In this document: positions 1 to 14,669 of the stretch, piece by piece
Layout: each line of letters opens with the position of its first letter
Numbering within the stretch: position 1 is the first letter of the stretch
Assembly (NCBI GenBank): GCA_963667725.2
Contig: CAXXHO010000005.1
Coordinates: forward strand, 960,001-1,024,000
DNA length: 64,000 bases
Source: Treponemataceae bacterium
GTDB taxonomy: Bacteria; Spirochaetota; Spirochaetia; Treponematales; Rectinemataceae
Reading direction: 5' to 3'
The notes under the pieces: generated by a model
What the model saw: only the letters and a program-made list of their open reading frames with translations
The model's database searches: none
What the model was told of the DNA's origin: nothing
Translations under genes and position numbers: made by a program

Positions 1-803
1 TTCTTGAACAGACCGGCGATCGTCGTTACGACAGCTCCGACCGCGGAGCTTTCGACCAGGTTGGTGACGCCCATGAAAAAGAGGCCCGACATCATGAAGA
101 TAATGAAAAGGGGAATGATGCCGGCGCTGAGAAGTTTCAATTTTTTTGCTATGGGCACATGACGTTCCTCTTTTGGAAGAACGGGGCCGAGCTTCGGATT
201 GAAGGTGCATCGCACGAGAATATAGATGATGAAAATCGCGGCAAGCATCAGACCGGGCATAATGCCGGCCAGCCACAGCTTGCTGACGGGCTGCCGCGCG
301 ATCATGGCGTAGAGCACGAGGACGACGCTCGGCGGAATCATTATCCCCAGCGAACTTCCCGCCTGGATGACCCCCGTCACCATTTTCTTGTCGTATTTGC
401 GCTTGAGCATTTCGGGAAGAGCGATGCTGCTGCCGACAGCCATGCCTGCCACGCTGAGGCCATTGATTGCCGATATGATAGACATGAGAATGACGGTCCC
501 TATCGCCAGTCCGCCGGGTACGGGACCCATCCAGACATGGATCATCTCGTAAAGATCGTCGGCGATGCCCGACTTGGCGAACATATATCCTATGTAAATG
601 AAGATAGGCAGCGTGAGCAGAGGGTACCAGACGAGGAGCTGGAAGCTTGCCTGGAAGGACATGCCTATACCGCCCTTTCCCCATAACAGTACGGCAAAAA
701 TAGCGCCAACGCCGCCGATGACGGCGAAGATATGCCTTCCGGTGAGGAGGAGAACGATCATCGAAGAGAACATCAACAGTGCCATCAATCCATAGCCGTT
801 CAT
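1..803 (-). CDS. dctM: TRAP transporter large permease (DctM), runs off the window start
   Basis: ATG at 803 overlaps the dctQ stop (ATGA). The translation MNGYGLMALLMFSSMIVLLLTG... is hydrophobic and contains GILVPPS. Lies downstream of dctP and dctQ. Confidence 0.9.
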   Translation of the reverse strand, partial: MNGYGLMALLMFSSMIVLLLTGRHIFAVIGGVGAIFAVLLWGKGGIGMSFQASFQLLVWYPLLTLPIFIYIGYMFAKSGIADDLYEMIHVWMGPVPGGLAIGTVILMSIISAINGLSVAGMAVGSSIALPEMLKRKYDKKMVTGVIQAGSSLGIMIPPSVVLVLYAMIARQPVSKLWLAGIMPGLMLAAIFIIYILVRCTFNPKLGPVLPKEERHVPIAKKLKLLSAGIIPLFIIFMMSGLFFMGVTNLVESSAVGAVVTTIAGLFK

Positions 804-1342
804 TTTGTACCCTCTTCTTTGGGCTGCTCAGCCCTGGGGTCCTCACCTCTAAGCGTCGCGATATCCTTGATCAGTTCGGATATTACCTGAAGAAACATGA
901 GGAAGATGCCGGCGACCATGAATATTTTCACGGGAAGCACTTTAGGCGCCCATGAGGAATAGGTTACCTGGCCATATCGGGCGGCGTATTGGATGCCCTG
1001 TATGCCGCCGACCAGGAGGACGATCATATAGAAAAGGATGATGGCGAAGGTGATCACATCCGAAAGAGCCTTTCTTTTCGGCGACCATTTATCGTAGAAA
1101 ACATCCATCCTGACATGTCCACCCAATATTAACGTGGATGCGCCGCCGAGAAGGTAATAGGGAGCCATGAAAAACTGGGTCAATTCCACGGCCCAGACAT
1201 TGGGCCTGTTGAAGACTGTCCTCGTGATCGTGTCGTAGAGCAGGATGCCCATCATGACGAATATCAGGTACATCACGATCTTGCCGACCAATTTGCTCGT
1301 CGCGTCGACATATTTTACATATGTTTTTGCTGCCTTACCCAT
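800..1342 (-). CDS. dctQ: TRAP transporter small permease (DctQ)
   Basis: About 4 TM segments, W-x-x-E and GHVRMD motifs. Start placed at MGKAAK after CAGGAGG RBS. Confidence 0.9.
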   Translation of the reverse strand: MGKAAKTYVKYVDATSKLVGKIVMYLIFVMMGILLYDTITRTVFNRPNVWAVELTQFFMAPYYLLGGASTLILGGHVRMDVFYDKWSPKRKALSDVITFAIILFYMIVLLVGGIQGIQYAARYGQVTYSSWAPKVLPVKIFMVAGIFLMFLQVISELIKDIATLRGEDPRAEQPKEEGTK

Positions 1343-1379
1343 CGAAACCTCCTGATGATGGATCCGAGGTATCAAAGAA

Positions 1380-1452: not shown

Positions 1453-2544
1453 TCAGTACCTGTAGGGAGCTCCCGCTTTCTTCATGGTCGCGTCGTATTT
1501 TTTCAGTATTTCGACGACTTTGGCGTTCCGCGGGCTCTTCTTCGCGGCCTCGTCCCAGAATTTCAACGCGGCATCCTCCACAACCTTCCATTCCTTGTCG
1601 GGAATGGTCGTCAGTTCGAGCTTTCCGCCATTGACGCGGAAGTTGGCCTCGCCGTACCAGTACCAGTGGAGTCTGTAATAGTGCGACTTGTCGATCGCGA
1701 GCCTCACCAGCTGCTGCAGGTGGGGAGGGATCTTGTTCCAGGCGTCCGTATTGACGAACCAGCCGCCGGACCAGGCGCCCGAGATCGGGTTCGTCAGGTA
1801 ATACTTCGTCACATCGGCCCAGCCGACCGTGTAGTCTTCGGTGATGCCCGACCAGGCGACGCCGTCGAGCATGCCGGTCTGCAGCGCCATCTCCACGTCC
1901 TCATAGGGCATGACGACGGGCACCACGCCGAACTGCTGCATGAACTGTCCGCCCGTGGGGAACATGTACATCCTCAGGCCTTTGAAGTCCTTGATCGACC
2001 GGATGGGTTTTGTCGTGGCGAAGTTGCATGGATCCCAGCTTCCCTGGCTCAGCCATGTCACGCCCTTTACCTCATCATAGGCTTCCTTCCATATCTCGTT
2101 CAGCCCATACCAGTTCCAGAGGACGTTGACGTCGAGGCCGTACCTGGCGGCGAGCGGGAAGTAGGCGCCGAAAATCCGCACATCGACGGGGGAGGCCATC
2201 GAGTCGTCGTCGCTGACTGCCATGTCGACCGTGCCTTCCTGCAAGGCTCTGAAAAGCTCGCCATGCGGAACGAGCTGGTCAGCCGTGTAAACCTCTATCA
2301 CCATCTCGCCGTTGGCGGCGATATTGAACTCGTCAATGGCGTTCTTGACCACATGGTCATTCAGGGCAGGTCCGGCGTATGACTGGAGCCTCCACTTGAT
2401 GACGTCTTTTTTGGCTTCTCCCTGGGCCGGGCCTTCTGCGACTTTTTCCTTCGCGCTGCAGGCGCCCAGGAACAAAGCGCATCCCACTACAATTGTCATG
2501 AGGATCAGGAATTTCGTATGCTTTCCCTTGACTCCAGATTTCAT
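1453..2544 (-). CDS. dctP: TRAP solute-binding lipoprotein (DctP), lacking the conserved carboxylate-binding Arg
   Basis: Lipobox LGAC; WRLQSY, DQLVP..E..RAL..G..D and DFKGLR motifs; start MKSGVK after AGGGGG. Confidence 0.9.
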   Translation of the reverse strand: MKSGVKGKHTKFLILMTIVVGCALFLGACSAKEKVAEGPAQGEAKKDVIKWRLQSYAGPALNDHVVKNAIDEFNIAANGEMVIEVYTADQLVPHGELFRALQEGTVDMAVSDDDSMASPVDVRIFGAYFPLAARYGLDVNVLWNWYGLNEIWKEAYDEVKGVTWLSQGSWDPCNFATTKPIRSIKDFKGLRMYMFPTGGQFMQQFGVVPVVMPYEDVEMALQTGMLDGVAWSGITEDYTVGWADVTKYYLTNPISGAWSGGWFVNTDAWNKIPPHLQQLVRLAIDKSHYYRLHWYWYGEANFRVNGGKLELTTIPDKEWKVVEDAALKFWDEAAKKSPRNAKVVEILKKYDATMKKAGAPYRY

Positions 2545-2904: not shown

Positions 2905-3474
2905 ATGCCAAGCAAGAAAGAAGATGTCATGAGTGGTGTGTCGGGACCGGATGGCAAGATGACGGCGCAATGCCGCGAAATACGCATCCGCGTCAATGGC
3001 TCGTGGCGAAGCTTCAAACTTGAGGGCGACCTCGACAACGCCACGACGCTCTCCTACCTGCTGCGGGAAAAGCTTGGATATACGGGACTCAAGGTTTCCT
3101 GCGACGAGGGCGCCTGCGGCGCCTGTACCGTCATCATGGGCGATACGGCCGTGCTCTCGTGCATGGTGCTGGCCATCGAGGCCGACGGCAAGGAAGTCCT
3201 GACGATCGAAGGTCTTCCCAAAGATGATCCCGTCGTCGAAGCCTTCGCCGAACAGTCAGAACCGGGCTACGGCACCGCCATGCAGTGCGGCTACTGCACT
3301 CCCGGCTTCGTCATGACATCGAGAGCCCTCCTCAACGCCAACCCCACCCCGACGCTTGCCGAGGTGAAGGATGCCCTGGCAGGCAATATCTGCCGCTGCG
3401 GCTGCTACGCCGGAATCGCGCAGGCAGTGATGCGCGCCTCCGAGAAGATCGTGGCCAGAAGGAGCGTCAAATGA
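2905..3474 (+). CDS. Mo-hydroxylase small subunit, 2x[2Fe-2S] (XdhC/CoxS-like)
   Basis: CDEGACGACTV and QCGYCTPG...GNICRCG motifs. Confidence 0.95.
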   Translation: MPSKKEDVMSGVSGPDGKMTAQCREIRIRVNGSWRSFKLEGDLDNATTLSYLLREKLGYTGLKVSCDEGACGACTVIMGDTAVLSCMVLAIEADGKEVLTIEGLPKDDPVVEAFAEQSEPGYGTAMQCGYCTPGFVMTSRALLNANPTPTLAEVKDALAGNICRCGCYAGIAQAVMRASEKIVARRSVK

Positions 3475-5828
3475 TCGAACGATACAAGCCGCGCGTCCAG
3501 CGCAAGTTCGTGGGAGGCTACAGGCCCAAGCTCGATGGCCCGGACAAGGCCTCGGGTCGCGCCCAATACGCCGACGACATGACGCTGAAATCCCGCTTTC
3601 CCGATATGCTCTACGCGAAGATTCTGCGCAGCCCCTATCCGAGCGCGCGCATAAAGAAATTCGACAAGAGCAAGGCCGAAGCCCTGCCGGGCGTCGTCAC
3701 CGTGATGACCTACCAGGACCCGGAGTTCACCTCCCTGAAACTGACCAACGCCGGATGGACGGACTGCGTGGATACCGTCACCTGGGACAGGATGATGTTT
3801 CCCTTCCGCGACAGGCGCGTCTTGGGCGAATACGGGTGTTGGGCTGGCGACGAGATGGGTATCGCCGTTGCCGCCGAAACCGAGGAGATCGCCGAAGAGG
3901 CCTTGAAGTTGATCGACATCGAATGGGAAACGCGGCCCTTTGTCCTCGACCCGATAGAGGCTATGGGCAATAACGCCCCTCTCGTCCATCCGGACCTCAC
4001 CGACTCCAACATCCTCGCGCCCGACCCGACGGGCGGCCCCGACGTCTTCGAAAATCGCGGCGATGTCGACAAGGCCTTCAAGGACGTCGATGTCATCGTC
4101 GAGGGCAGTTCGACCTTCCACAACGCTACCCAGTGTTCTATGGACAACTGGTGCTGTGTCATGCAATGGAAGGAAGACCAGCTCACGGCATGGTCCAATA
4201 CATACGCCGCCGATCAGCTCCGCATGCATATAAGCGAGATGCTCGGACTGCCTCTCCATAAGATACGCGCTATCGCCTCCTATGTCGGCGGTCAGTTTGG
4301 CCGCGGCGATACAGGCGATCAGCCCTTCTTCCTCGTCACCAGCCTCCTCGCCATGAAGACGGGGCGACCGGTTAAATACAGGCATACTAGGCATCAGAGT
4401 TTCCTCAATACCAGGCAACCCGCCATCTACGATTTCAAGGCCGGGCTGAAGAAGGACGGAACCCTCGCGGCCCTCTACACGAAGGCGATCGGCAATGTCG
4501 GCGCCTATGCCGATCTTTCCATGTTCGCCCTCAAGTTCGTGCCCAAGGAATTGGCCGAAGTCTTCCTGGCCCACGTCCCCAACCTAAAGATGGAAGCCTA
4601 TGGGGTGTACGCCAACGTTATCCCCGGCTGCATGATGCGCGGCGTCGGCAACTCCCAGTTCAACCTCATCTTCGCCCATATGATAGACGCCTGCGCCGAA
4701 AAGCTGGGCATGGATCCGATGGACTTCTGCATCAAGAATTTCGCCACCGAGTGGGAGAAATTGCCTTCCGACAGCCTCATCGAAGTGCTGAAGGTGGGGG
4801 CGAAACGCCTGGGCTGGAAGGAAAAGCGACACGCCCCCGGCAAGGGAGCGTTGATCGATGGCGTGAAGAAGCGAGGGGTTGGCTTCTCCTGCCATCCCTC
4901 CTGGCACGCGGAGTGGCAGGAAAAGCGGCGCGGCAAGGTTCAGGTCAACCTGACGCTCAATCCGGACTGCACCATCCTCCTCAACGCCGCCACCATCGAA
5001 GTGGGCGGCGGCTCCAACACCTGCAACGTCCTTGGCTGCGCCGAAGCCCTGAGCTTCCTCGGCATCGGCGTCGAGGATATCTATTGGACACCGATCGTGG
5101 ACACGAAGGACGGCATCAAGGACTGTGTCCAGACCGACAGCGCCGTGTCCTTCCTGCAGTCGGAAGTCATGATCGATTCGGCCAAGGAACTCAAGGAAAA
5201 ACTCAAAGTAGCCGGCGCCGAAATACTGAAGATTCCGGCCGCGGACCTGGATTTCGCCGACGGCAAGGTCATCGTCGCGTCGAAACCTTCCTTCAAAATG
5301 ACGATCAAGGAAATGCTGCGCAAGGGTGACAACGCCCCCATCACCGTGGCCAAGAGCCGCTCGCCTGACGTGAAACTGACCGGCGTACCTTTCTTTGCCA
5401 ACTTCGCCGAGGTCGAGGTGGACACGAGCACGGGCAAGGTCGACGTGCAAAAACTGGTCGTCGTCAACGACTGCGGCACCGTCATGTACGCCTCGGGCGC
5501 CGAGTCGCAGCAGATCGGCGGCCAGTGCATGGGCATGGGCGAGGCTTTGACCGAAGAGATCATCTACGACAAGGCCACGGGCATCCCGCTCAATTTCAAC
5601 TGGGTGGACTACACCATTCCGACCATGGCAGACATGCCGGAAATAGAGCCAGTGCTCCTCGAGGTATGGAAGGGAGTGGGCGAATATGGCGCCTGCGGAA
5701 TAGGAGAAGGCACGGTTTCATGCACGCCGGGAGCCATCGCGAACGCGATCTACAACGCCATTGGGGTCAGGGTGAACGACATTCCGATTAAACCGGAAAA
5801 GATCCTGAAAGCCTTGGGAAAGGACTGA
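3471..5828 (+). CDS. Xanthine dehydrogenase family molybdopterin-binding large subunit
   Basis: DKASGRAQYADD, RSPYPSARI, VGGQFG, MRGVG and GIGE motifs. ATG 3471 overlaps the upstream stop (ATGA). Confidence 0.93.
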   Translation: MIERYKPRVQRKFVGGYRPKLDGPDKASGRAQYADDMTLKSRFPDMLYAKILRSPYPSARIKKFDKSKAEALPGVVTVMTYQDPEFTSLKLTNAGWTDCVDTVTWDRMMFPFRDRRVLGEYGCWAGDEMGIAVAAETEEIAEEALKLIDIEWETRPFVLDPIEAMGNNAPLVHPDLTDSNILAPDPTGGPDVFENRGDVDKAFKDVDVIVEGSSTFHNATQCSMDNWCCVMQWKEDQLTAWSNTYAADQLRMHISEMLGLPLHKIRAIASYVGGQFGRGDTGDQPFFLVTSLLAMKTGRPVKYRHTRHQSFLNTRQPAIYDFKAGLKKDGTLAALYTKAIGNVGAYADLSMFALKFVPKELAEVFLAHVPNLKMEAYGVYANVIPGCMMRGVGNSQFNLIFAHMIDACAEKLGMDPMDFCIKNFATEWEKLPSDSLIEVLKVGAKRLGWKEKRHAPGKGALIDGVKKRGVGFSCHPSWHAEWQEKRRGKVQVNLTLNPDCTILLNAATIEVGGGSNTCNVLGCAEALSFLGIGVEDIYWTPIVDTKDGIKDCVQTDSAVSFLQSEVMIDSAKELKEKLKVAGAEILKIPAADLDFADGKVIVASKPSFKMTIKEMLRKGDNAPITVAKSRSPDVKLTGVPFFANFAEVEVDTSTGKVDVQKLVVVNDCGTVMYASGAESQQIGGQCMGMGEALTEEIIYDKATGIPLNFNWVDYTIPTMADMPEIEPVLLEVWKGVGEYGACGIGEGTVSCTPGAIANAIYNAIGVRVNDIPIKPEKILKALGKD

Positions 5829-5838
5829 GGGGATAGCC

Positions 5839-8235
5839 ATGGGAATGCACAAATTTGATCATATCGCGGCGAAATCGCTCGATGATGCGGTGACGCAGAT
5901 CGGCAAGTATCGCAAGACTGCGGTCGTGGTGGCGGGCGGGACTGATATCCTCGGAATACTGAAGGACGAGGTCCATCCGGTATATCCCAAAGTCCTCGTG
6001 GACATAAAAACCATCGAAGGGCTCTCGTACATCCGCGAGGAAGCGGGCGGCTTGAAGATTGGGGCGCTCACCACCCTCTCCGAGATAACCAAAAACGGGA
6101 CGGTCAGGAAGAAGTATCCCTTGCTCGCCGAGGCGGCGCACGCGGTAGCCTCGCCGCAGCTGAGGAATATGGGCACCATCGGCGGCAACCTCTGCCAGGA
6201 ACCGCGCTGTTGGTACTATAGAGGACTCGACAACAGCTTCCACTGCCTCAGGAAGGGCGGAGATCACTGCCCGGCCCTGACCGGCGAAAACCGCTACCAT
6301 TCCATATTCGGCTCCATGCGGGTAGGCAGGCCGGGCTGTTCCTCTGAGTGCCCGGACAATATCGACATACCCCGCTACATGGAAAGGATCCGCGCCGGCG
6401 AGATAGCCGAAGCGGGGCGCATCATCCTGGAGAACAACCCGATGCCGGCCGTCACGGGTCGCGTCTGCCCGCATTTCTGCGAGCAGGGCTGCAACCGCGG
6501 CGAACAGGACAGCGCCGTCTCCATCAGGGCGGTGGAACGCCGCGTGGGCGATTACATCCTCGAGAATAAGAAGAAATACCAGAAGGCTCCCGCCAAGGAG
6601 AACGGCAAGAAGATTGCGATCATCGGGGGCGGACCGGCTGGTCTCTCCTGCGCCTTCTTCCTTAGGCTCAAGGGCTTCGGCGTCGTGATCTACGACAAAC
6701 AGCCCAAGCTCGGCGGAATGCTGCGCTACGGCATCCCCGATTTCAGGCTTTCCCCGGGCGTGCTGGACAGCGAGATAGATTTCATTCTCTCGCACGGCAT
6801 CGTCGCGAAGACAGGCCAGCAGCTCGGTAAGGATTTTACGCTCGACAGTCTCAGAAAGGAAGGTTTCAGCGCCGTCTTCCTCGCGATGGGATCCTGGCGC
6901 GCCAAGGGTATGGGCGTCGAGAACGAAAAGCATCCGAACATCCTCCCCGGCATTTCCTTCCTCGAAGGCGTCAAGTGGAACGGACCGCCCGCGATGAACG
7001 GCACCGTCGCCGTCGTCGGCGGCGGCAACACGGCCATCGACGCCGCGAGGACAGCGCTCCGCTGCGGGGCGAAGAAAGTCGTCCTCCTCTATCGCAGGAC
7101 GCGATCCGAGATGCCCGCCGAAGACGAAGAAATCGAGGACGCGATCAAGGAAGGCATCGAGCTCCAGTTCCTCGTCGCCCCAAAGAAAGTCGTGCTGGGA
7201 GGCGCGAAACTAGAAGGCCTCGAATGCTGCAAGATGCAGCTCGGTGAGCCTGACGCCTCCGGGCGGCCGCGTCCCGTCGAGATAAAGGGGAGCGATTTCC
7301 TCTTTAAGGCCGACTGGGTGGTTTCGGCCATCGGCCAGGACCAGAACCTGTTGGGTCTCGACAATACGTCCTATGGCGCCATCGCGCTGACCAAAGGCAA
7401 CGGCATCGATGCCGACCCCGAAACCTATCAGACGAGCGCGGCGGGAGTATTCGCCGGCGGCGATGTCGCGACAGGACCGGCCACGGTGGTGGAAGCCCTC
7501 GCCGCGGGCAGGAAAACGGCGGATTCGATAGAGGTTTACCTCGCCGGCGGCGCTTTGAAGAAAGCCGCTGAGGGGCCCGGAAGCGCGGGAAAACTCAGGC
7601 CGATCAACGACAAGGCGCTCAAGCCTTCGGAGCGGGCAAGCGTCAGGGAGCTGGATCCCTGCGATCGCTGCATGGACAAGGAAGACTACGCGACGCTCGA
7701 GGACGGCAAGGTGAGCATGGAAGCCCATCGCTGCCTCGACTGCAGCTGTGTGGCCGTCAACGCTTCCGATGTCGCTCCGGCGTTGATCGCGCTGGGGGCG
7801 ACGATCAAAACGACCAAGAGAAGCATCGCGGCCGAGGACTTCTATACCGTAGGGCTGATGACCACCACGGTGCTTGCCGTCGATGAACTCGTGACGGAAA
7901 TCTCCATACCGGCGCCCAAGGCCGGAACAAAATTCAGCTTCCAGAAATTCAGGGTGCGCAATTCCATAGATTTCCCGATCGTGAGCGTCGCCTCCGCCCT
8001 GGACTTCGAGAATGGAAAAATCAGCGGCGCCAGGATAGTGTTCGGCGCTGTCGCGCCCATCCCGCTAAGAGCCGTGAATGTCGAGGAAATCCTCATCGGG
8101 AAGACGGCGAGCGAAGAGACGGCGGAGATCGCGGGCGAGATCGGGGCGAAACAGGTGTTCCCGCTGGAGAGAAACCGGTATAAGGTGCAGATTCTGAAGG
8201 GACTTTTGCGCAAGGCCATAGTGGCGAGCAAATAA
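5839..8235 (+). CDS. Mo-hydroxylase FAD/[4Fe-4S] subunit (PaoB/HcrB-like) with an inserted GltD-like Fe-S flavoprotein module
   Basis: N-terminal AGGTD and RNMGTIGGNLC; middle CxxxCP, GRVCPHFCEQGC, IIGGGPAG, GGGNTAID, YRR and FAGGD; C-terminal CoxM-type RNSIDF and GAVAPIP. Confidence 0.9.
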   Translation: MGMHKFDHIAAKSLDDAVTQIGKYRKTAVVVAGGTDILGILKDEVHPVYPKVLVDIKTIEGLSYIREEAGGLKIGALTTLSEITKNGTVRKKYPLLAEAAHAVASPQLRNMGTIGGNLCQEPRCWYYRGLDNSFHCLRKGGDHCPALTGENRYHSIFGSMRVGRPGCSSECPDNIDIPRYMERIRAGEIAEAGRIILENNPMPAVTGRVCPHFCEQGCNRGEQDSAVSIRAVERRVGDYILENKKKYQKAPAKENGKKIAIIGGGPAGLSCAFFLRLKGFGVVIYDKQPKLGGMLRYGIPDFRLSPGVLDSEIDFILSHGIVAKTGQQLGKDFTLDSLRKEGFSAVFLAMGSWRAKGMGVENEKHPNILPGISFLEGVKWNGPPAMNGTVAVVGGGNTAIDAARTALRCGAKKVVLLYRRTRSEMPAEDEEIEDAIKEGIELQFLVAPKKVVLGGAKLEGLECCKMQLGEPDASGRPRPVEIKGSDFLFKADWVVSAIGQDQNLLGLDNTSYGAIALTKGNGIDADPETYQTSAAGVFAGGDVATGPATVVEALAAGRKTADSIEVYLAGGALKKAAEGPGSAGKLRPINDKALKPSERASVRELDPCDRCMDKEDYATLEDGKVSMEAHRCLDCSCVAVNASDVAPALIALGATIKTTKRSIAAEDFYTVGLMTTTVLAVDELVTEISIPAPKAGTKFSFQKFRVRNSIDFPIVSVASALDFENGKISGARIVFGAVAPIPLRAVNVEEILIGKTASEETAEIAGEIGAKQVFPLERNRYKVQILKGLLRKAIVASK

Positions 8236-8320: not shown

Positions 8321-11038
8321 CTAACTCCGCATTTTTCGCGAATCCAGCCAGCTCCGAAGCGGCGGCAGCGATTCCGCCACCAATCCGACCAGGTCGGTTC
8401 CCATATCCTCGTCGTATCGCGAAAGAATGAAACCGGTGAGTTCCTCGTCAAGCTTGGGCCGATCCAGAGCGCCCAGAAAATCGCCGAGAGATCGCGTTGG
8501 CGCCCTGTCTTCGCCGTTTCGCGTCAGCGCCGCGCCCCTACCGCCCCATAGCCTCGAAACGGGAGAATTCGACAGCTCGAAAAGCGAGATGAGCGAATTC
8601 CTTGTGCGAGGTTCTTCGCGGTAGAGGTAGAGGAGATCGAGAATGGCTATGTATTTCTCCTCTCCCTCGTTTTCTATGATCCTCGGTATGATTTCCTCGA
8701 TATTATGCCTGCGCAGCCTCAGAACGGCCATGTATTTCCCGCCGCCCTCGATGAATCCGGCGACGAAGTCCGACCAGATCTTCGTCTGGACGATGCTGGG
8801 TATTTTCAGCATATTGCCGAGCGGGGCGAAAACGGCCGCGAAGGGCCACGCTATCACGCTGCGGAAGAAGTTCGCGCGCACAACTTTTTTATCGAAGCCG
8901 CGCAACGTGTTGTGAGCGGCGAGGTACAGTCCGTTCGCGAACGAGATGACGAAAAACTTGGCCAGGTTGAAAAACATGCCGTCCTGCGCCCATGGCCATA
9001 CGATATCGAAATTCGACTTGACGAATCCGAGGATGGGCACCGAAAAGCCAGTCCAGAACAAGGATTGGGCGACATTGTCGAAATTGATGCTTTTCAGTTT
9101 CCATTCGCTGAGCCGACCGCCTCGGTTCGACACGAGGTCGGCGACGCTGTTCCTGAAACCGGTGATGCCCAGCCAGAGCAGCGCGTACGACCAGCCTATG
9201 AAATGATTGGCCACGATGAAACCGATAAAGGCGTAAAGATAATTCTTCACGGATGGGTTGAGATAGCGCCATACTTTTTGGGGCGGTATGAAAGCGGTTT
9301 CGGCCGACGAACCGTCGCCTACGCCGCCCCACTCCGAAAGCTTGCCCAGGCAGACGATGGGCGATACCGAACTTGCGTCGGATTCCCGGACCGGCCTTCC
9401 TTCCGCGTCGATCATGGCCGAGATGAAGGGCGTGAGCGCAATGTGCCGCGAGAGGAAATTTCCTTTGCGCGAACCGAGGATCCTGTCTTCCCGGGTAAAC
9501 CCCATGCCGGGTATTTTCGGATGCCGGCCGGTGGAATCGCTTCCGCATACGGGGATGTAAGGAGCCGTGCCTTCTTTTAGCGCGCGTTCATTGAGCGCGT
9601 TGATGTGGCCGGCGAAGCTTCGCATTTCTTCCGGACCGCGGCTTACGCAGTCCTGGATATTGTAAAGTTCGACGAGATCGATGACGCCGCGGTATTCCGT
9701 CAATACTTCGACCGCCTTCTCTACGCCATGCTCCAGCGGATGGAGCATTTTAAGCCTGCATCCCGCCGTCGAAAGCATCGATTTTACCGCCGCTATATCG
9801 TCGAAGGCGGACTGGTAGTCGATCAGGGAGGGGCCGTCGAAGTACTGCTTGAGGAGGCTGTCCGGCGACATGCCCTTGAAGGTCTTTTTCAGGTCTGAAT
9901 ATGCTTCATCAATGGCGCGGTACTCGGCTTCCGTGCCGCGTTCGCGTTTCCATTCGTCCTGGGCCTTGCTTTTCCGCACTTTAAGCAGAAGAAGTCTGTT
10001 GAACATGACCGGTCTCAGCGTGCTGTAAAGGAATTCCGCCAGATGGATGCGATTGATGCTCATCGTGGGAATGAAAGCGTTCAACGCTTCAAAGGTCAGT
10101 TCCGGAACCGTGTAGAGCGGTTCGTCCGGGAACCCGCCGTTCAGGGCTTCGAGCGAGGCGGCGTTGAATTCCTGCAGCACCCCGCGCACCGCCTCTACTC
10201 GATTGTTCTGGTTTTTCTCGAGATCGGCGAAAAAATCACGAAGGGCATCGGCATTCGTCCGGAAAAAGGCCCTGGCGTCGGCCGGCGTCCTCATCCGGGG
10301 CAGGATCGCCATGAAATGGAAACGGCGGCCTTGGACGGCCATGCTGAACTCGAAGCCGATGTTGATTCTGATGCCGATGATCCGTCCCGCCTCCAGGACT
10401 TCTTCCATCATCTCGATGTCGGAGGGAGAGCCGTAGGCCACTGTAAGCTCGGAAATGCCTTTTATGAAGGCGTCGATAATGAGCTGAGTGGGATTTTTCC
10501 GGCCCGAGGTGGCCGTGTCGTGGACATGGTCGTCCCAGCCGTAATTAAAATCCTCGAGCCTTGTCCCGTTTTCCGGTAGGAGAACGATATTGAGCTCATC
10601 GCAGAGCCTCTGGATTACCTGTTTCTGGCCATGCGTGGATATGGAAAAATCGTGGAGCAGCTCCAGCTGCCGTCTTTTGTTCTGCCTGTTCTTCACCGCT
10701 TCCTTCATGAGCGCCATCTGGACGCGGGCGGTGTTGAGGGGCAGGTCGAGGCTTTTCGAGTTGAAGGACGCGTCGACGAGGACGCGAAGGGCTTCGAGCC
10801 TCGAGCGGGAATGCCTCGAATCGAGGTTTGAAACGACCATAAGGTAGGACTCAGCGATCGAAATCCTCCGGTGCGAAAACCAGCGGTTTACGCACCGGAC
10901 ACTGGAGGAGGGAGCGGCGATGCTGTCAGGGCTGTCTATTTTGGCGTTCAGCTCGCGCCGCATCTTGCGTAGCTCGGCGGAAAAGCTGAGAGAACCGATA
11001 GCCGATTTATAGACTCTCTGGACGGCTGATTTCTTCAT
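8321..11038 (-). CDS. Large hypothetical protein: PHP-like metallo-phosphoesterase domain plus C-terminal multi-TM region
   Basis: 905-aa ORF; DDHVHD, GFEFS, HP, ELYN and GSDS PHP-like motifs; several hydrophobic segments from about aa 600 to 750. Confidence 0.7.
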   Translation of the reverse strand: MKKSAVQRVYKSAIGSLSFSAELRKMRRELNAKIDSPDSIAAPSSSVRCVNRWFSHRRISIAESYLMVVSNLDSRHSRSRLEALRVLVDASFNSKSLDLPLNTARVQMALMKEAVKNRQNKRRQLELLHDFSISTHGQKQVIQRLCDELNIVLLPENGTRLEDFNYGWDDHVHDTATSGRKNPTQLIIDAFIKGISELTVAYGSPSDIEMMEEVLEAGRIIGIRINIGFEFSMAVQGRRFHFMAILPRMRTPADARAFFRTNADALRDFFADLEKNQNNRVEAVRGVLQEFNAASLEALNGGFPDEPLYTVPELTFEALNAFIPTMSINRIHLAEFLYSTLRPVMFNRLLLLKVRKSKAQDEWKRERGTEAEYRAIDEAYSDLKKTFKGMSPDSLLKQYFDGPSLIDYQSAFDDIAAVKSMLSTAGCRLKMLHPLEHGVEKAVEVLTEYRGVIDLVELYNIQDCVSRGPEEMRSFAGHINALNERALKEGTAPYIPVCGSDSTGRHPKIPGMGFTREDRILGSRKGNFLSRHIALTPFISAMIDAEGRPVRESDASSVSPIVCLGKLSEWGGVGDGSSAETAFIPPQKVWRYLNPSVKNYLYAFIGFIVANHFIGWSYALLWLGITGFRNSVADLVSNRGGRLSEWKLKSINFDNVAQSLFWTGFSVPILGFVKSNFDIVWPWAQDGMFFNLAKFFVISFANGLYLAAHNTLRGFDKKVVRANFFRSVIAWPFAAVFAPLGNMLKIPSIVQTKIWSDFVAGFIEGGGKYMAVLRLRRHNIEEIIPRIIENEGEEKYIAILDLLYLYREEPRTRNSLISLFELSNSPVSRLWGGRGAALTRNGEDRAPTRSLGDFLGALDRPKLDEELTGFILSRYDEDMGTDLVGLVAESLPPLRSWLDSRKMRS

Positions 11039-11816: not shown

Positions 11817-13937
11817 TCAGCCGGGCAGAAGCTCCGCCGCGGCAAGCCTGTCCGCCACGTCCTTTAAGCCGACGGACTCCAGGTACGATCGAGTCGGGGC
11901 GCCGGTCGTCTCATCCCAGCCAAACTCCTTGTAGACCATGGTTCGGCCCAGCTCCAAATCCGACTTTTCCATCTGTATGCTTCCCGGCGTGAATTGTGGG
12001 ATGTTCGAACCGTCCTTGGCATGGTCCGGGGTGATGGGCCATTCGGTGGTCTGGTCGTGCGCGTTCCGCAGATCGGCTGTCCTCATCTGCATGATAGTGT
12101 AGGCGCGCTGGAGCGTGAAGCATTTCGCGGCCGTCTCGTCCAGCTCCTTTTCGCTCATCCGGATACCGGTGGCGAGAGAGTAGAATTTGGACTCGAGCGA
12201 AGTGTCGCCGCGGTACTTGCGCTCCTTCAGCGGGCTCACGGCCATGGGCCACATCCAGTTGCAGAGGGTGAGCGAGTTGTGAAGCATGGATCGTACCAGC
12301 GAGTACTTCACGAACTTAGCCTTGTACACGTTCATTTTCGTATATACGGCCGGGGCGTCGAGAGCCTCGGGCGAACCGAATATCTCGCCCGCGATCTCTT
12401 TCTGCAACGCGACCGGCAGCTTGGAGCCGATGAAGTTCATGTGCGAATGGTTCTGGGAATCGCGGTTGGAAAAACAGGAGATGAGCGCGCCGACCTGGGC
12501 TCCCGCCTCGTTCGAATGGTGCACGGGATAGCCGCCGCGGGTCCAGAGCTTGCCGCTCTTGTCGTTCCAGTAGTCATCGCCGAGGTTCCAGCGTTGCGCT
12601 ATCCAATACGATCCGTCGGCGATGTGGGAGAACTCGCCTTTCTTGAAGGCCACTCTTTCGTAGAAATCGAAGTAGAAGGACGCGTCCCCGCTAAGGAGCT
12701 TGCTCCATGGAATCGAAGCGTACTCTTCGGCGCTCAGAACACGCTTGAAGACGCCTTTGTCGTAGCAGTACTTGAGATCGCGGCCTATCTGCGCATAGTT
12801 GCACCAGACGCCATAATCGTCGGCAAGGGTCGTTCCGATCGCGTTGCCCACGATGCTTGCGTCGGAACCCGTATTGCCGTCGAAATCCTTGATCCCGTAG
12901 CACATGACGCCGCGCGGTCCGGACCAGCCCACGCAGGTGTTGGCCACGTATGGATCGAGTCCGTACTTCTCCAGCTGGGGAACCTTGAGCTGCGAGTGGC
13001 AGCGGATCGGGCAATGCGAACAGCCGCCCATTCGCACGGTGTATTTCTCCGCGCCCGCGCCCAGGTCGAAGATCGCCTTCATCGTGCGCAATCCCACGGA
13101 CTGCATGTCGTGAGGATCGCATTCGCCCGTTTCCACGGGGGGATTCGCGGCGCCCCAGAAGAGACCTTTGCGCCCAGTCCAGCGCGAACTCTTGTCCGAA
13201 TACTCCGCCCAGGGCTGCGGCGTGGAGGGAACGACCATCTGGTTGTTCGCGCCTATGATGCTCATCATGTACGCGTCGAGCTCGAGCCAATCCTTGCCGC
13301 TCGCCGCGATTTTCACCGAACCGGTGCCGTGTACGCCTATGGCTTTCAGATTCTTGGAACCCATGACGCCGCCGTGTCCTCCGGCCGAATGCGAAGCGCC
13401 GGTGCGGATCACCGAAAGGTTGACGAGGTTTTCTCCAGCCTGCCCGATGGCCGCGACCTGGGCTTCCTTGCCCATGAAGGAGGCCACCATGGCCTGGGTG
13501 TCGAAAATGCCCTTTCCCCACATCCAACGGGCGTCCTCGATTCTCACCTTTTCATCTTCGATTCTCAGCCAGACGGGTGATGCCGCTTTCCCCTCGATGA
13601 CGATCAGATCATAGCCGGCATACTTTAGCTCGGTGGCGAAGTAGCCGCCCATGTGCGAACTCGCGATGCCGTAAAAGGGGCTCGAGGGCAGGAGGCTGGT
13701 TATATTGGTGCGGCCGGAGCAAGGGGCGCCGGTTCCGCAGAGGGGGCCAGCGCCGAAGATGATCTTGTTTTCCGGCGCGAAGGGGTGTGTGCCCGCCGGC
13801 ACCTCGTCCCACATGATTTTCATCGACATGCCTTCGCCGCCGATGAATTCCTTGTATTTGAGCGTGTCGTCGATGGAAACCGAGCCAGCGCTCAAGTTCA
13901 CCCTGAGAATTTTTCCGGTATATCCAAATGTTTCCAT
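11817..13937 (-). CDS. ydhV: Aldehyde:ferredoxin oxidoreductase family, YdhV-like
   Basis: GYTGKILRVNL, SHMGG, IGQAGENLV, GVMGSKNLKAI, CSHCPIRC and GWDETTGAPT motifs. Confidence 0.9.
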   Translation of the reverse strand: METFGYTGKILRVNLSAGSVSIDDTLKYKEFIGGEGMSMKIMWDEVPAGTHPFAPENKIIFGAGPLCGTGAPCSGRTNITSLLPSSPFYGIASSHMGGYFATELKYAGYDLIVIEGKAASPVWLRIEDEKVRIEDARWMWGKGIFDTQAMVASFMGKEAQVAAIGQAGENLVNLSVIRTGASHSAGGHGGVMGSKNLKAIGVHGTGSVKIAASGKDWLELDAYMMSIIGANNQMVVPSTPQPWAEYSDKSSRWTGRKGLFWGAANPPVETGECDPHDMQSVGLRTMKAIFDLGAGAEKYTVRMGGCSHCPIRCHSQLKVPQLEKYGLDPYVANTCVGWSGPRGVMCYGIKDFDGNTGSDASIVGNAIGTTLADDYGVWCNYAQIGRDLKYCYDKGVFKRVLSAEEYASIPWSKLLSGDASFYFDFYERVAFKKGEFSHIADGSYWIAQRWNLGDDYWNDKSGKLWTRGGYPVHHSNEAGAQVGALISCFSNRDSQNHSHMNFIGSKLPVALQKEIAGEIFGSPEALDAPAVYTKMNVYKAKFVKYSLVRSMLHNSLTLCNWMWPMAVSPLKERKYRGDTSLESKFYSLATGIRMSEKELDETAAKCFTLQRAYTIMQMRTADLRNAHDQTTEWPITPDHAKDGSNIPQFTPGSIQMEKSDLELGRTMVYKEFGWDETTGAPTRSYLESVGLKDVADRLAAAELLPG

Positions 13938-13955
13938 TGCAGTTTTCCTCCCCGC

Positions 13956-14669
13956 TTAGGCAGTCGCGCCGCTGACGACCGTGGCGCCGGAATTGGCATC
14001 GGCTCCCCACAGAAGTTTTTCCGCTTCTTTGTAATCCATATAGCGTATCGCCCCAGTCGGGCAGAGCCTCACGCAGGTCGGATCCCCCTCGCAGCTCGTG
14101 CATTTCGACGTCTTCCTGGTTTCCGGATCGACGGTGGGCAGATTCCACGCGCAAGCCTGGACGCATTTCCCGCATCCGACGCAGCGCTTGGCGTCGATGA
14201 CGCGGGCGCCGGTTTTCGCGTCGGCATAGATAGCGTTCATCGGGCAGGCGTTGCCGCACGCGGGTTTTTCGCATTGGCGGCAGGTCTCGGCGACGATCCT
14301 GAAGTTGCCCATCTGGCCATCGGCCTTCGCGTAGGCCGCCGTGACGCCTTCGACGCCGTAATTGAGATTTCTGGAGACTTTGATTCTGGAAAGCTCGGCG
14401 CTCACTTTGCCCGAATTCCTCGTCGAGCAGCCGAATTCGCAGCGCTTGCAGCCTACGCAGCGGCTCGGGTCGTGGACGATGACGCCCGAAGGAATCGCCC
14501 ATACACGCAGCTCCTTGGCTTCGGGGTCCTCCCACTTGCCAGCCCCGGCGAGGGAGGCGGTGACGAGAAGTCCCGCGATGCTTCCTCCCGCCATTTTGAG
14601 GAAATCTCTTCTTGATCGGGGTTTTTCAAACCAGCTTTCGCCTTCCCGCTTCTCTGGAAAGTCTTTCAT
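13956..14669 (-). CDS. ydhY: Tat-exported 4x[4Fe-4S] protein, YdhY-like
   Basis: SRRDFLK twin-arginine signal; CVGCKRCEFGC, CRQC..PAC...CP, CVGCGKCVQAC and CTSC...C...CP motifs. Confidence 0.85.
   Translation of the reverse strand: MKDFPEKREGESWFEKPRSRRDFLKMAGGSIAGLLVTASLAGAGKWEDPEAKELRVWAIPSGVIVHDPSRCVGCKRCEFGCSTRNSGKVSAELSRIKVSRNLNYGVEGVTAAYAKADGQMGNFRIVAETCRQCEKPACGNACPMNAIYADAKTGARVIDAKRCVGCGKCVQACAWNLPTVDPETRKTSKCTSCEGDPTCVRLCPTGAIRYMDYKEAEKLLWGADANSGATVVSGATA

Follow-up and report, generated by a model that had tools for sequence, protein, structure and literature searches.

A predicted NADP(H) port inserted into the cluster loop of a xanthine-oxidase-family FAD subunit from a Rectinemataceae genome

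Can the flavin adenine dinucleotide (FAD) subunit of a molybdenum (Mo) hydroxylase hold a complete NADPH-linked flavoprotein within its own [4Fe-4S] cluster loop, and where would the electrons then go? The question is raised by the last gene of a three-gene operon of a Treponemataceae bacterium (family Rectinemataceae), which lies in a stretch of 64,000 nucleotides (nt) that we analysed as a whole and call the window (contig CAXXHO010000005.1, positions 960,001 to 1,024,000). Its product of 798 amino acids (aa) had been described as such a split protein in a first-pass annotation. Our reading, to which we assign a probability of about 0.7, is that the operon encodes a cytoplasmic xanthine-oxidase-family heterotrimer with a built-in NADP(H) port and a linear electron wire, without a bifurcating flavin, and with the layout of UxdFOC, the urolithin 10-dehydroxylase of Enterocloster spp. 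(Pidgeon et al. 2025, PMC12658268; here and for the other papers cited, statements are those of the accessible text). We infer the binding of the cofactors, the preference for NADPH and the absence of bifurcation. The features that carry this reading are as follows.

2905..3474, + strand: small subunit carrying a pair of [2Fe-2S] clusters (Pfam Fer2 and Fer2_2; 43% identity to UxdF of locus L143, 159 aa)
3471..5828, + strand: molybdopterin-binding large subunit, 785 aa (Pfam Ald_Xan_dh_C, MoCoBD_1, MoCoBD_2)
5839..8235, + strand: FAD medium subunit with inserted GltD-like cassette, an open reading frame of 798 aa and the last gene of the three-gene operon
5839..6327, + strand: host N-half, aa 1-163, with the xanthine dehydrogenase (XDH)-type FAD motifs GGTD (33-36) and GTIGGN (112-117)
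nt 6208, 6244 and 6268, + strand: putative loop-cluster ligands C124, C136 and C144 in the host N-half
6328..7746, + strand: inserted permuted GltD/NfnL-like cassette of StnC/NfnA type, aa ~164-636 (~473 aa)
6337..6537, + strand: cassette Fe-S domain, with C171, C210, C214 and E233 as putative ligands of the flavin-proximal [4Fe-4S] cluster and C167 and C218 as half of those of the distal one
6625..7098, + strand: cassette nucleotide core, with the FAD motif GGGPAG (263), R303, GGGNTAID (394) and the NADP-type YRR (418-420)
7720..7749, + strand: hinge EAHRCLDCSC, in which C632 and C635 would complete the distal cassette cluster and C637 the host loop cluster
7747..8235, + strand: host C-half, aa 637-798, with S643-D644, R707/D711/F712 and the CO_deh_flav_C domain

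An FAD subunit split at its cluster loop

A Pfam scan of the 798-aa protein, which the first-pass annotation had proposed as a check, returned FAD_binding_5 (in two stretches, best 5-120), Fer4_20 (164-244), Pyr_redox_2 (258-557) and CO_deh_flav_C (702-794), with Fer4_20 and Pyr_redox_2 lying between the host parts; the insert, estimated earlier at about 470 aa, was found close to that size. Upstream of it, C124, C136 and C144, which had been named as three cysteines of a PaoB/HcrB-type cluster, align with HcrB C122, C138 and C146 and with PaoB C119, C129 and C138. Right after it, C637, put forward as the fourth, aligns with HcrB C155 and 5Y6Q_B C158, and with PaoB C157 by matched range only. 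We take the aligned HcrB and PaoB cysteines to be cluster ligands in those proteins. Since S159 corresponds to PaoB residue 153, a fourth cysteine should fall close to residue 163, which is exactly where the insert starts.

These residues are conserved among homologs. A first search gave 120 rows (the query and 119 matches), and all 110 rows of at least 770 aa keep the cluster cysteines and E233. The set was enlarged by a further search, started from a Bacillota member, and by the addition of UxdC, after which 224 of 241 rows were full length; it consists of two best-120 lists, and its counts are not family frequencies. Invariant in 224/224 rows are the four loop cysteines, C171, C210, C214, C218, C632, C635, E233 and R303, as well as the host FAD residues G33, G34, D36, S643, D644, R707, D711 and F712, and C167 is kept in 222/224. 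Named homologs include Spirochaetes, Sphaerochaeta, Dehalococcoidales, Acidobacteriota, Deltaproteobacteria and Bacillota, and near-whole coverage of the profile was seen in 27 of the best 150 representatives at 50% identity. Within the Rectinemataceae, the C-terminal part was matched in 20 of 69 genomes, 17 of which have the cassette and the host C-half in one frame, the other three being cut by contig ends; a sample spread evenly over phyla was positive in 7/401 cases. A genome of the same genus carries an intact copy that is 97% identical, and a protein of 1730 aa (P0442) unites in one chain the Mo subunit and the FAD subunit with its cassette.

In an AlphaFold2 model of the 798-aa protein (99 sequences; predicted local distance difference test score [pLDDT] 89.9, predicted template modelling score [pTM] 0.87), the two host halves, taken together as a single unit, can be laid over 5y6q_B (315/330 residues, root-mean-square deviation [rmsd] 2.0 Å, Z 36.4), and also over 1rm6_B (307/323) and 5g5g_B (305/316). 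The halves are thus predicted to refold into one intact FAD domain around the insert. The insert itself superposes on residues 98-567 of 8oh5_C (Z 46.5, rmsd 2.2, 457 aligned) and on 9bov_A (Z 48.1); over the StnC/NfnA chains as a whole, including the T. sibiricus NfnA chains, Z ranged from 45.6 to 48.1. Classical NfnL/GltD structures superpose only on model residues ~160-575. With the ligands and both FAD sites conserved and the host halves refolding in the model, the earlier proposal of a two-flavin, multi-cluster subunit that links Mo chemistry to NADP(H) gains support.

The cassette, its hinge and its nucleotide core

The insert is a known mobile cassette of StnC/NfnA type. It had been described as a complete GltD/NfnL-like module with its own FAD and NADPH motifs, and GGGNTAID at 394 and YRR at 418 stand at the places reported. 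The cassette starts with CxxxCP, without an N-terminal RCxxC, and carries RCxxC at its C-terminal end (EAHRCLDC, aa 628-635, just before C637). We collected outgroup cassettes by a locus search by alignment with generic GltD motifs, which yielded 1 full fusion among 80 loci. In classical GltD/NfnL loci, RCxxC stands just before CxxxCP in 39/84, which are examples only, as the pattern left another 39/84 unclassified. StnC and NfnA have RCxxC at the far end, in the same order as the 798-aa protein, indicating that the permutation predates the fusion. The circular permutation noted in the first pass is therefore real in comparison to classical GltD/NfnL, but it is not special to this protein.

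As unfused rows we used the 98 of 150 representatives that lack XDH host patterns, a few of which are missed fusion fragments. A C-terminal RCxxC was present in 92/98 and a CxxCxC in 47/98, and all unfused rows with HxxDC before the cassette (39/39; StnC-type) have the CxxCxC hinge. A permutation arising as a new event in the 798-aa protein was rejected, the StnC/NfnA cassette and these 92/98 unfused rows already having the C-terminal RCxxC. Proteins with other hosts match the profile over ~163-630. In StnC-type proteins the cassette appears to interrupt a NuoG-type cluster motif in a like manner, and the CxxCxC hinge may thus have been reused; in both settings it would join two clusters through ligands two residues apart. 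Candidate cases of such a parallel insertion into a ligand set, with the cassette splitting an HxxDC...xC motif, were seen at StnC-type loci L013, L015, L018, L021, L039 and L069 and in proteins P0489-P0526.

The cluster ligands of the cassette can be assigned by homology. C171, C210, C214 and E233 align with C108, C147, C151 and K170 of Csac NfnA, which are the ligands of the flavin-proximal cluster A7 in the path FAD-A7-A6-A3 (PMC11829005). By elimination, C167, C218, C632 and C635 would be the ligands of a distal [4Fe-4S] cluster. The proximal-cluster ligand E233 is Glu in 224/224 fusions, compared to Lys in StnC/NfnA, and Glu also occupies this position in 23/98 other cassette rows. Another permuted cassette is encoded in the source genome (L003, C3:1555848-1557074), where it ends a protein of ~1000 aa and has His at the proximal-cluster position; its host, read from the flank, is a candidate NuoF-type protein.

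Residues 418-420 are YRR in 58/224 rows and CLE-like in 166/224. StnC and the proteins of both NfnA structures carry YRR, like the 798-aa protein, and CLE is read as NAD-type by general Rossmann-fold reasoning. Within the window's family, Mo subunits that are 62-95% identical pair with either type. Relatives of CLE type include locus L130 of genome G456 as well as UxdC, while Sphaerochaeta pleomorpha has a YRR-type homolog that is 63% identical (P0049, WP_014271707.1). The 798-aa protein is 54-62% identical to CLE-type relatives in the host N-half and Fe-S part and 32-43% identical in the nucleotide domain; with StnC-type proteins it shares 34-39% in the former regions and 48-55% in the latter. 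In quick, unrooted trees of 68 rows, the Fe-S and hinge segments of all 41 fusions lay on one side of a branch (SH-like approximate likelihood ratio test [SH-aLRT] 97). The core segments of the fusions did not form one clade: the clade of the 798-aa protein was joined to two StnC-type rows (92), and a further YRR group to other unfused rows (99). An approximately unbiased (AU) test on 38 of the 68 rows under a simpler model rejected a single clade for 22 fusion cores (p 0.003), and a second group, chosen after inspection of the tree, gave p 0.0002. The simplest reading, which we consider probable, is one insertion followed by repeated exchange of the nucleotide core by recombination, with possible convergence at NADP-binding residues as a caveat.

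A proposed linear wire and the readings that compete with it

In the proposed enzyme, electrons would pass from the Mo-molybdopterin cytosine dinucleotide (MCD) centre through [2Fe-2S] I and [2Fe-2S] II to the host FAD, and from there to the loop [4Fe-4S] cluster (C124, C136, C144, C637). They would continue through the distal (C167, C218, C632, C635) and proximal (C171, C210, C214, E233) cassette clusters to the cassette FAD and NADP(H). The cassette would thereby replace an external carrier by a hydride-transfer site, and neither flavin would bifurcate. In StnC and NfnA, the cassette FAD serves as an end station for NADPH from which a linear chain is fed, and bifurcation needs a separate BC module (PMC10482914, PMC11829005, PMC12018979). 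A plain wire would be sufficient, because NAD+ is not used by PaoABC, whose loop has no insert (PMC3958847), and NADH is all that purified Ucdh needs to dehydroxylate (bioRxiv 2025.01.17.632430), which shows that chemistry of this kind can be driven by a pyridine nucleotide. XdhC and NTP_transf_3 proteins for cofactor maturation are encoded in the source genome.

The substrate leads come from the large subunit and from transporters beside the operon. The catalytic-type E746 in GEG and R390 are invariant in 121/121 large-subunit rows, and ESM Atlas gave only generic XdhA names for this subunit. Two genes of a transporter of the tripartite ATP-independent periplasmic (TRAP) type lie upstream.

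1453..2544, - strand: TRAP solute-binding protein, divergent from the operon (4uab_A, E 4.8e-136; next match 1e-16)
800..1345, - strand: TRAP small permease DctQ, with DctM next, running past the window start

4UAB is Csal_0678 with bound ethanolamine (PMC12410723), and a homolog binds ethanolamine with a dissociation constant (Kd) of 7.9 uM (PMC10132767). The TRAP binding protein was found in 4/69 family genomes, always adjoining the operon. In 12 other family genomes (L123-L132, L157, L161), the operon is flanked on either side by an SBP_bac_6 ATP-binding cassette (ABC) transporter, whose binding protein has 5t1p_A as its nearest solved structure and weak PhnS-type matches; these operons are accompanied by a glycerophosphodiester phosphodiesterase in 4 genomes and by a PAP2 phosphatase in some. 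The ABC system is present in 30/69 family genomes (18/20 enzyme-bearing ones and 12 in which no enzyme was found), and in the source genome its SBP_bac_6 gene lies at C5:1320019-1321101, ~350 kb from the operon. All 20 enzyme-bearing genomes have a TRAP or an ABC transporter, as kin that are not independent. EutB was not found in the source genome, which is 97% complete. The ethanolamine-type TRAP transporter is a weak lead to the substrate, and we offer only tentatively, as a guess that is rather unlikely to be right, that the enzyme carries out NADP+-linked oxidation, without bifurcation, of a small aldehyde derived from ethanolamine or a related phospholipid head-group amine.

Several points weigh against the linear wire and against this substrate guess. 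The proximal cluster position is Glu in 224/224 fusions, as in the bifurcating NfnL, and the Arg by FAD N5 is kept. Ligation by C637 is predicted from alignment and whole-domain superposition on a model that is free of cofactors, and the preference for NADP over NAD is a motif-based prediction from YRR versus CLE. Only 4 related genomes have the TRAP transporter next to the operon, the surroundings of the operon showed no gene for ethanolamine activation or an ethanolamine dehydrogenase, and the ABC transporter also occurs in the 12 genomes in which no enzyme was found.

The main alternative keeps the same wire and sends the electrons to Mo: the enzyme would be an NADPH-driven reductive dehydroxylase of a (hetero)aromatic compound, like HcrCAB or UxdFOC, which we regard as possible, if on balance doubtful, and as about equal in likelihood to the aldehyde guess. 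Among solved chains, the large subunit matches HcrA best (E 1.7e-71, 245 bits vs 175 for PaoC), the only member of this layout with shown activity, UxdFOC, dehydroxylates, and an NCS2 nucleobase permease and an Amidohydro_3 gene adjoin the TRAP permease just upstream of the window start in the source genome and in the same-genus genome G450 (L141/L121). An Amidohydro_3 gene is found at the same spot in G410 as well. The large subunit, however, is not orthologous to UxdO (27% identity vs >93% among active species, a threshold taken from PMC12658268), and it falls below every NCBIfam cut-off, including those for 4-hydroxybenzoyl-CoA reductase (375/994 bits), XdhA (392/780) and PaoC (245/1180). 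Moreover, among the neighbours scanned, no CoA ligase or aromatic pathway recurs, and those that do recur are amine- or organophosphate-type transporters.

Electron bifurcation or confurcation, which had been raised in the first-pass annotation, seems quite unlikely to us. Here electrons would divide at the cassette FAD, acting like that of NfnL, or at the host FAD, so that Mo chemistry is coupled to NADP(H) and to ferredoxin or NAD(H). Two flavins are present, E233 is as in NfnB/NfnL and not the Lys of StnC, and the invariant R303 occupies by alignment the position of NfnB R201 and of StnC R239, the latter lying too far from FAD N5 to act (PMC10482914); what a Glu or a Lys signifies at the proximal cluster is called unclear in the Stn/Nfn literature (PMC12018979). 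Yet three solved complexes contain this cassette in a non-bifurcating role, and Glu also occurs in the 23/98 other cassette rows. Both cassette clusters would lead into the host, leaving no second branch. A Pfam scan of the three-gene operon found neither an NfnS partner nor a NuoF/NuoE-like BC module, and neither NfnS nor BfuBC appeared in the recurring neighbour clusters, for which representatives and not every open reading frame were scanned. The two NfnS-type (PF10418) matches of the source genome are on another contig, C3, one of them beside its own NfnL-like gene; a partner encoded at such a distance might conceivably be used. The boldest version, in which this would be the first bifurcating or confurcating xanthine-oxidase-family enzyme, serving a low-potential aldehyde step of a B12-independent anaerobic pathway for ethanolamine (a phospholipid head group) with electrons going to NADP(H) and ferredoxin and with swapping of NADP and NAD cores, is a long shot.

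Had the insertion ruined the loop cluster or the host FAD site, the cassette would be a loosely attached NADPH oxidoreductase unwired to Mo. The loop region is indeed the least confident host part of the model (blocks 121-140 average pLDDT 62-67), but rows that share as little as 39% identity all keep the four loop cysteines and the FAD motifs of the host, a single clade holds the junction segments and the host fold is recovered almost completely, making this highly improbable. An assembly chimera or chance fusion, for which one might cite the 6.3% estimated contamination of the source genome, is excluded because the ligand set is invariant (110/110, 224/224) and independent genomes hold the same open frame (hundreds of full-length homologs, the 97% identical same-genus copy and 17/20 positive family genomes, the remaining 3 ended by contig ends), while the GC content at third codon positions (GC3) is level across both junctions (0.76/0.80/0.77).

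Neighbouring genes, wider meaning and known systems

The ATG of the large-subunit gene overlaps the stop of the small-subunit gene. A promoter scan of the divergent gap upstream of the operon gave 6 sigma-70-like sites vs 2.0 expected, and a terminator scan called none after nt 8235. Beyond the operon, a gene at 8321-11038 (- strand) encodes a 905-aa protein without a Pfam or NCBIfam match and with a hydrophobic C-terminal part, whose HVHD...GSDS pattern suggests a PHP-type metallo-phosphoesterase. ESM Atlas placed it with unnamed Spirochaetota clusters (0.97-0.98) and, as a lead only, with a PHP cluster (0.80); homologs lie near the operon in G450, G427 (29% identity), G403 and G424. At 11817-14669 (- strand), a YdhV-like aldehyde ferredoxin oxidoreductase above the NF007354 cut-off is encoded together with a ferredoxin-like partner bearing a twin-arginine translocation (TAT) signal, a block not seen at the corresponding place in G450. 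Elsewhere in the source genome (L164:13302-15601, - strand), two tandem genes encode Ig-like and ice-binding domains.

If the wire is true, a widespread family of Mo enzymes of anaerobes has swapped ferredoxin docking for an NAD(P)H port of its own, and a swap of the nucleotide core alone could change the choice between NADP and NAD, with the same Mo subunit. Mo subunits that are 62-95% identical, with YRR partners in some cases and CLE partners in others, would provide a natural matched pair for coenzyme choice, and the fusions offer a direct test of the role of Glu versus Lys at the flavin-proximal cluster, a question left by the Stn/Nfn papers. An anaerobic route not yet described could be signalled by the conserved Mo-subunit clade, whose gene here adjoins an ethanolamine-type transporter while a search of the genome gave no EutB.

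Among known systems, classical GltD and NfnL/NfnB (2VDC, 5JCA, 4YLF) share with the cassette the Fer4_20 and Pyr_redox_2 core, the Glu-ligated proximal cluster and the Arg near FAD; they differ in that RCxxC is N-terminal and that NfnL bifurcates with an NfnS partner, which is absent from this operon. StnC (Sporomusa ovata StnABC, 8OH5) and NfnA (NfnABC; 9BOV, 9N5U) contain the same permuted domain as the insert (39-44% identity, rmsd 2.2-2.9 Å; boundaries given for StnC as 102-565, PMC10482914), with the YRR site and a terminal CxxCxC leading into a host cluster motif. In those proteins, however, the host is NuoG/Fdh-like and attached to a BfuBC module that bifurcates, and Lys stands at the proximal cluster, whereas the 798-aa protein has an XDH-family FAD host, a Glu ligand and no BC module in its operon. 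HcrCAB of Thauera aromatica (1RM6), PaoABC (5G5G) and KY4400 (5Y6Q) follow the same three-subunit plan, with an FAD medium subunit that has the extra [4Fe-4S] loop; their medium subunits, of 318-330 aa, are without the cassette or a built-in NAD(P) site. Ferredoxin is the electron donor of Hcr, and the loop cluster of HcrB is its entry point.

The closest system is UxdFOC, whose locus (L143) we found via the uxdC primer of PMC12658268, with UxdC being WP_117776984.1. Its three genes span 5,248 nt and encode products of 171, 758 and 810 aa, in agreement with the sizes in that paper; the computed mass is 130 Da above the published value, and the locus may represent an allele that is nearly the same. 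UxdC and the 798-aa protein share 39% identity over 812 columns (810 vs 798 aa), with the same Pfam order, the same N-junction, the EAxRCxxCxC hinge and all cluster ligands including Glu, and the gene order is likewise small-large-medium. The nucleotide site is CLE in UxdC and YRR in the 798-aa protein. The large subunits are 27% identical, compared to 43% for the small ones, and the substrate therefore probably differs from that of UxdFOC. UxdC has been described as having an added 4Fe-4S domain and FAD/NAD(P) domain, with 2 FAD predicted at opposite ends and a proposed shuttle from the distal to the proximal FAD, probably through 4Fe-4S clusters, and activity was seen in cultures of C. sporogenes carrying uxdFOC (PMC12658268). 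With this layout in print and active in vivo, the first-pass ranking of the 798-aa protein as the strongest novel-enzyme candidate is not supported for the architecture. The biochemical side is less advanced, since data on purification, cofactors and donor of UxdC are absent from the accessible text of PMC12658268. Its main text, as accessible, mentions neither 'permut' nor 'glutamate synthase', and describes neither the insertion in the cluster loop nor the link to StnC; in a literature search that lay mostly outside subscription journals, we found no other description of the architecture and no purified member. The layout is thus already known from UxdC, and what differs is an NADPH-type core and an uncharacterised Mo-subunit clade, to which our analysis adds the CxxCxC hinge shared with the NuoG-type split and the Glu in place of StnC's Lys.

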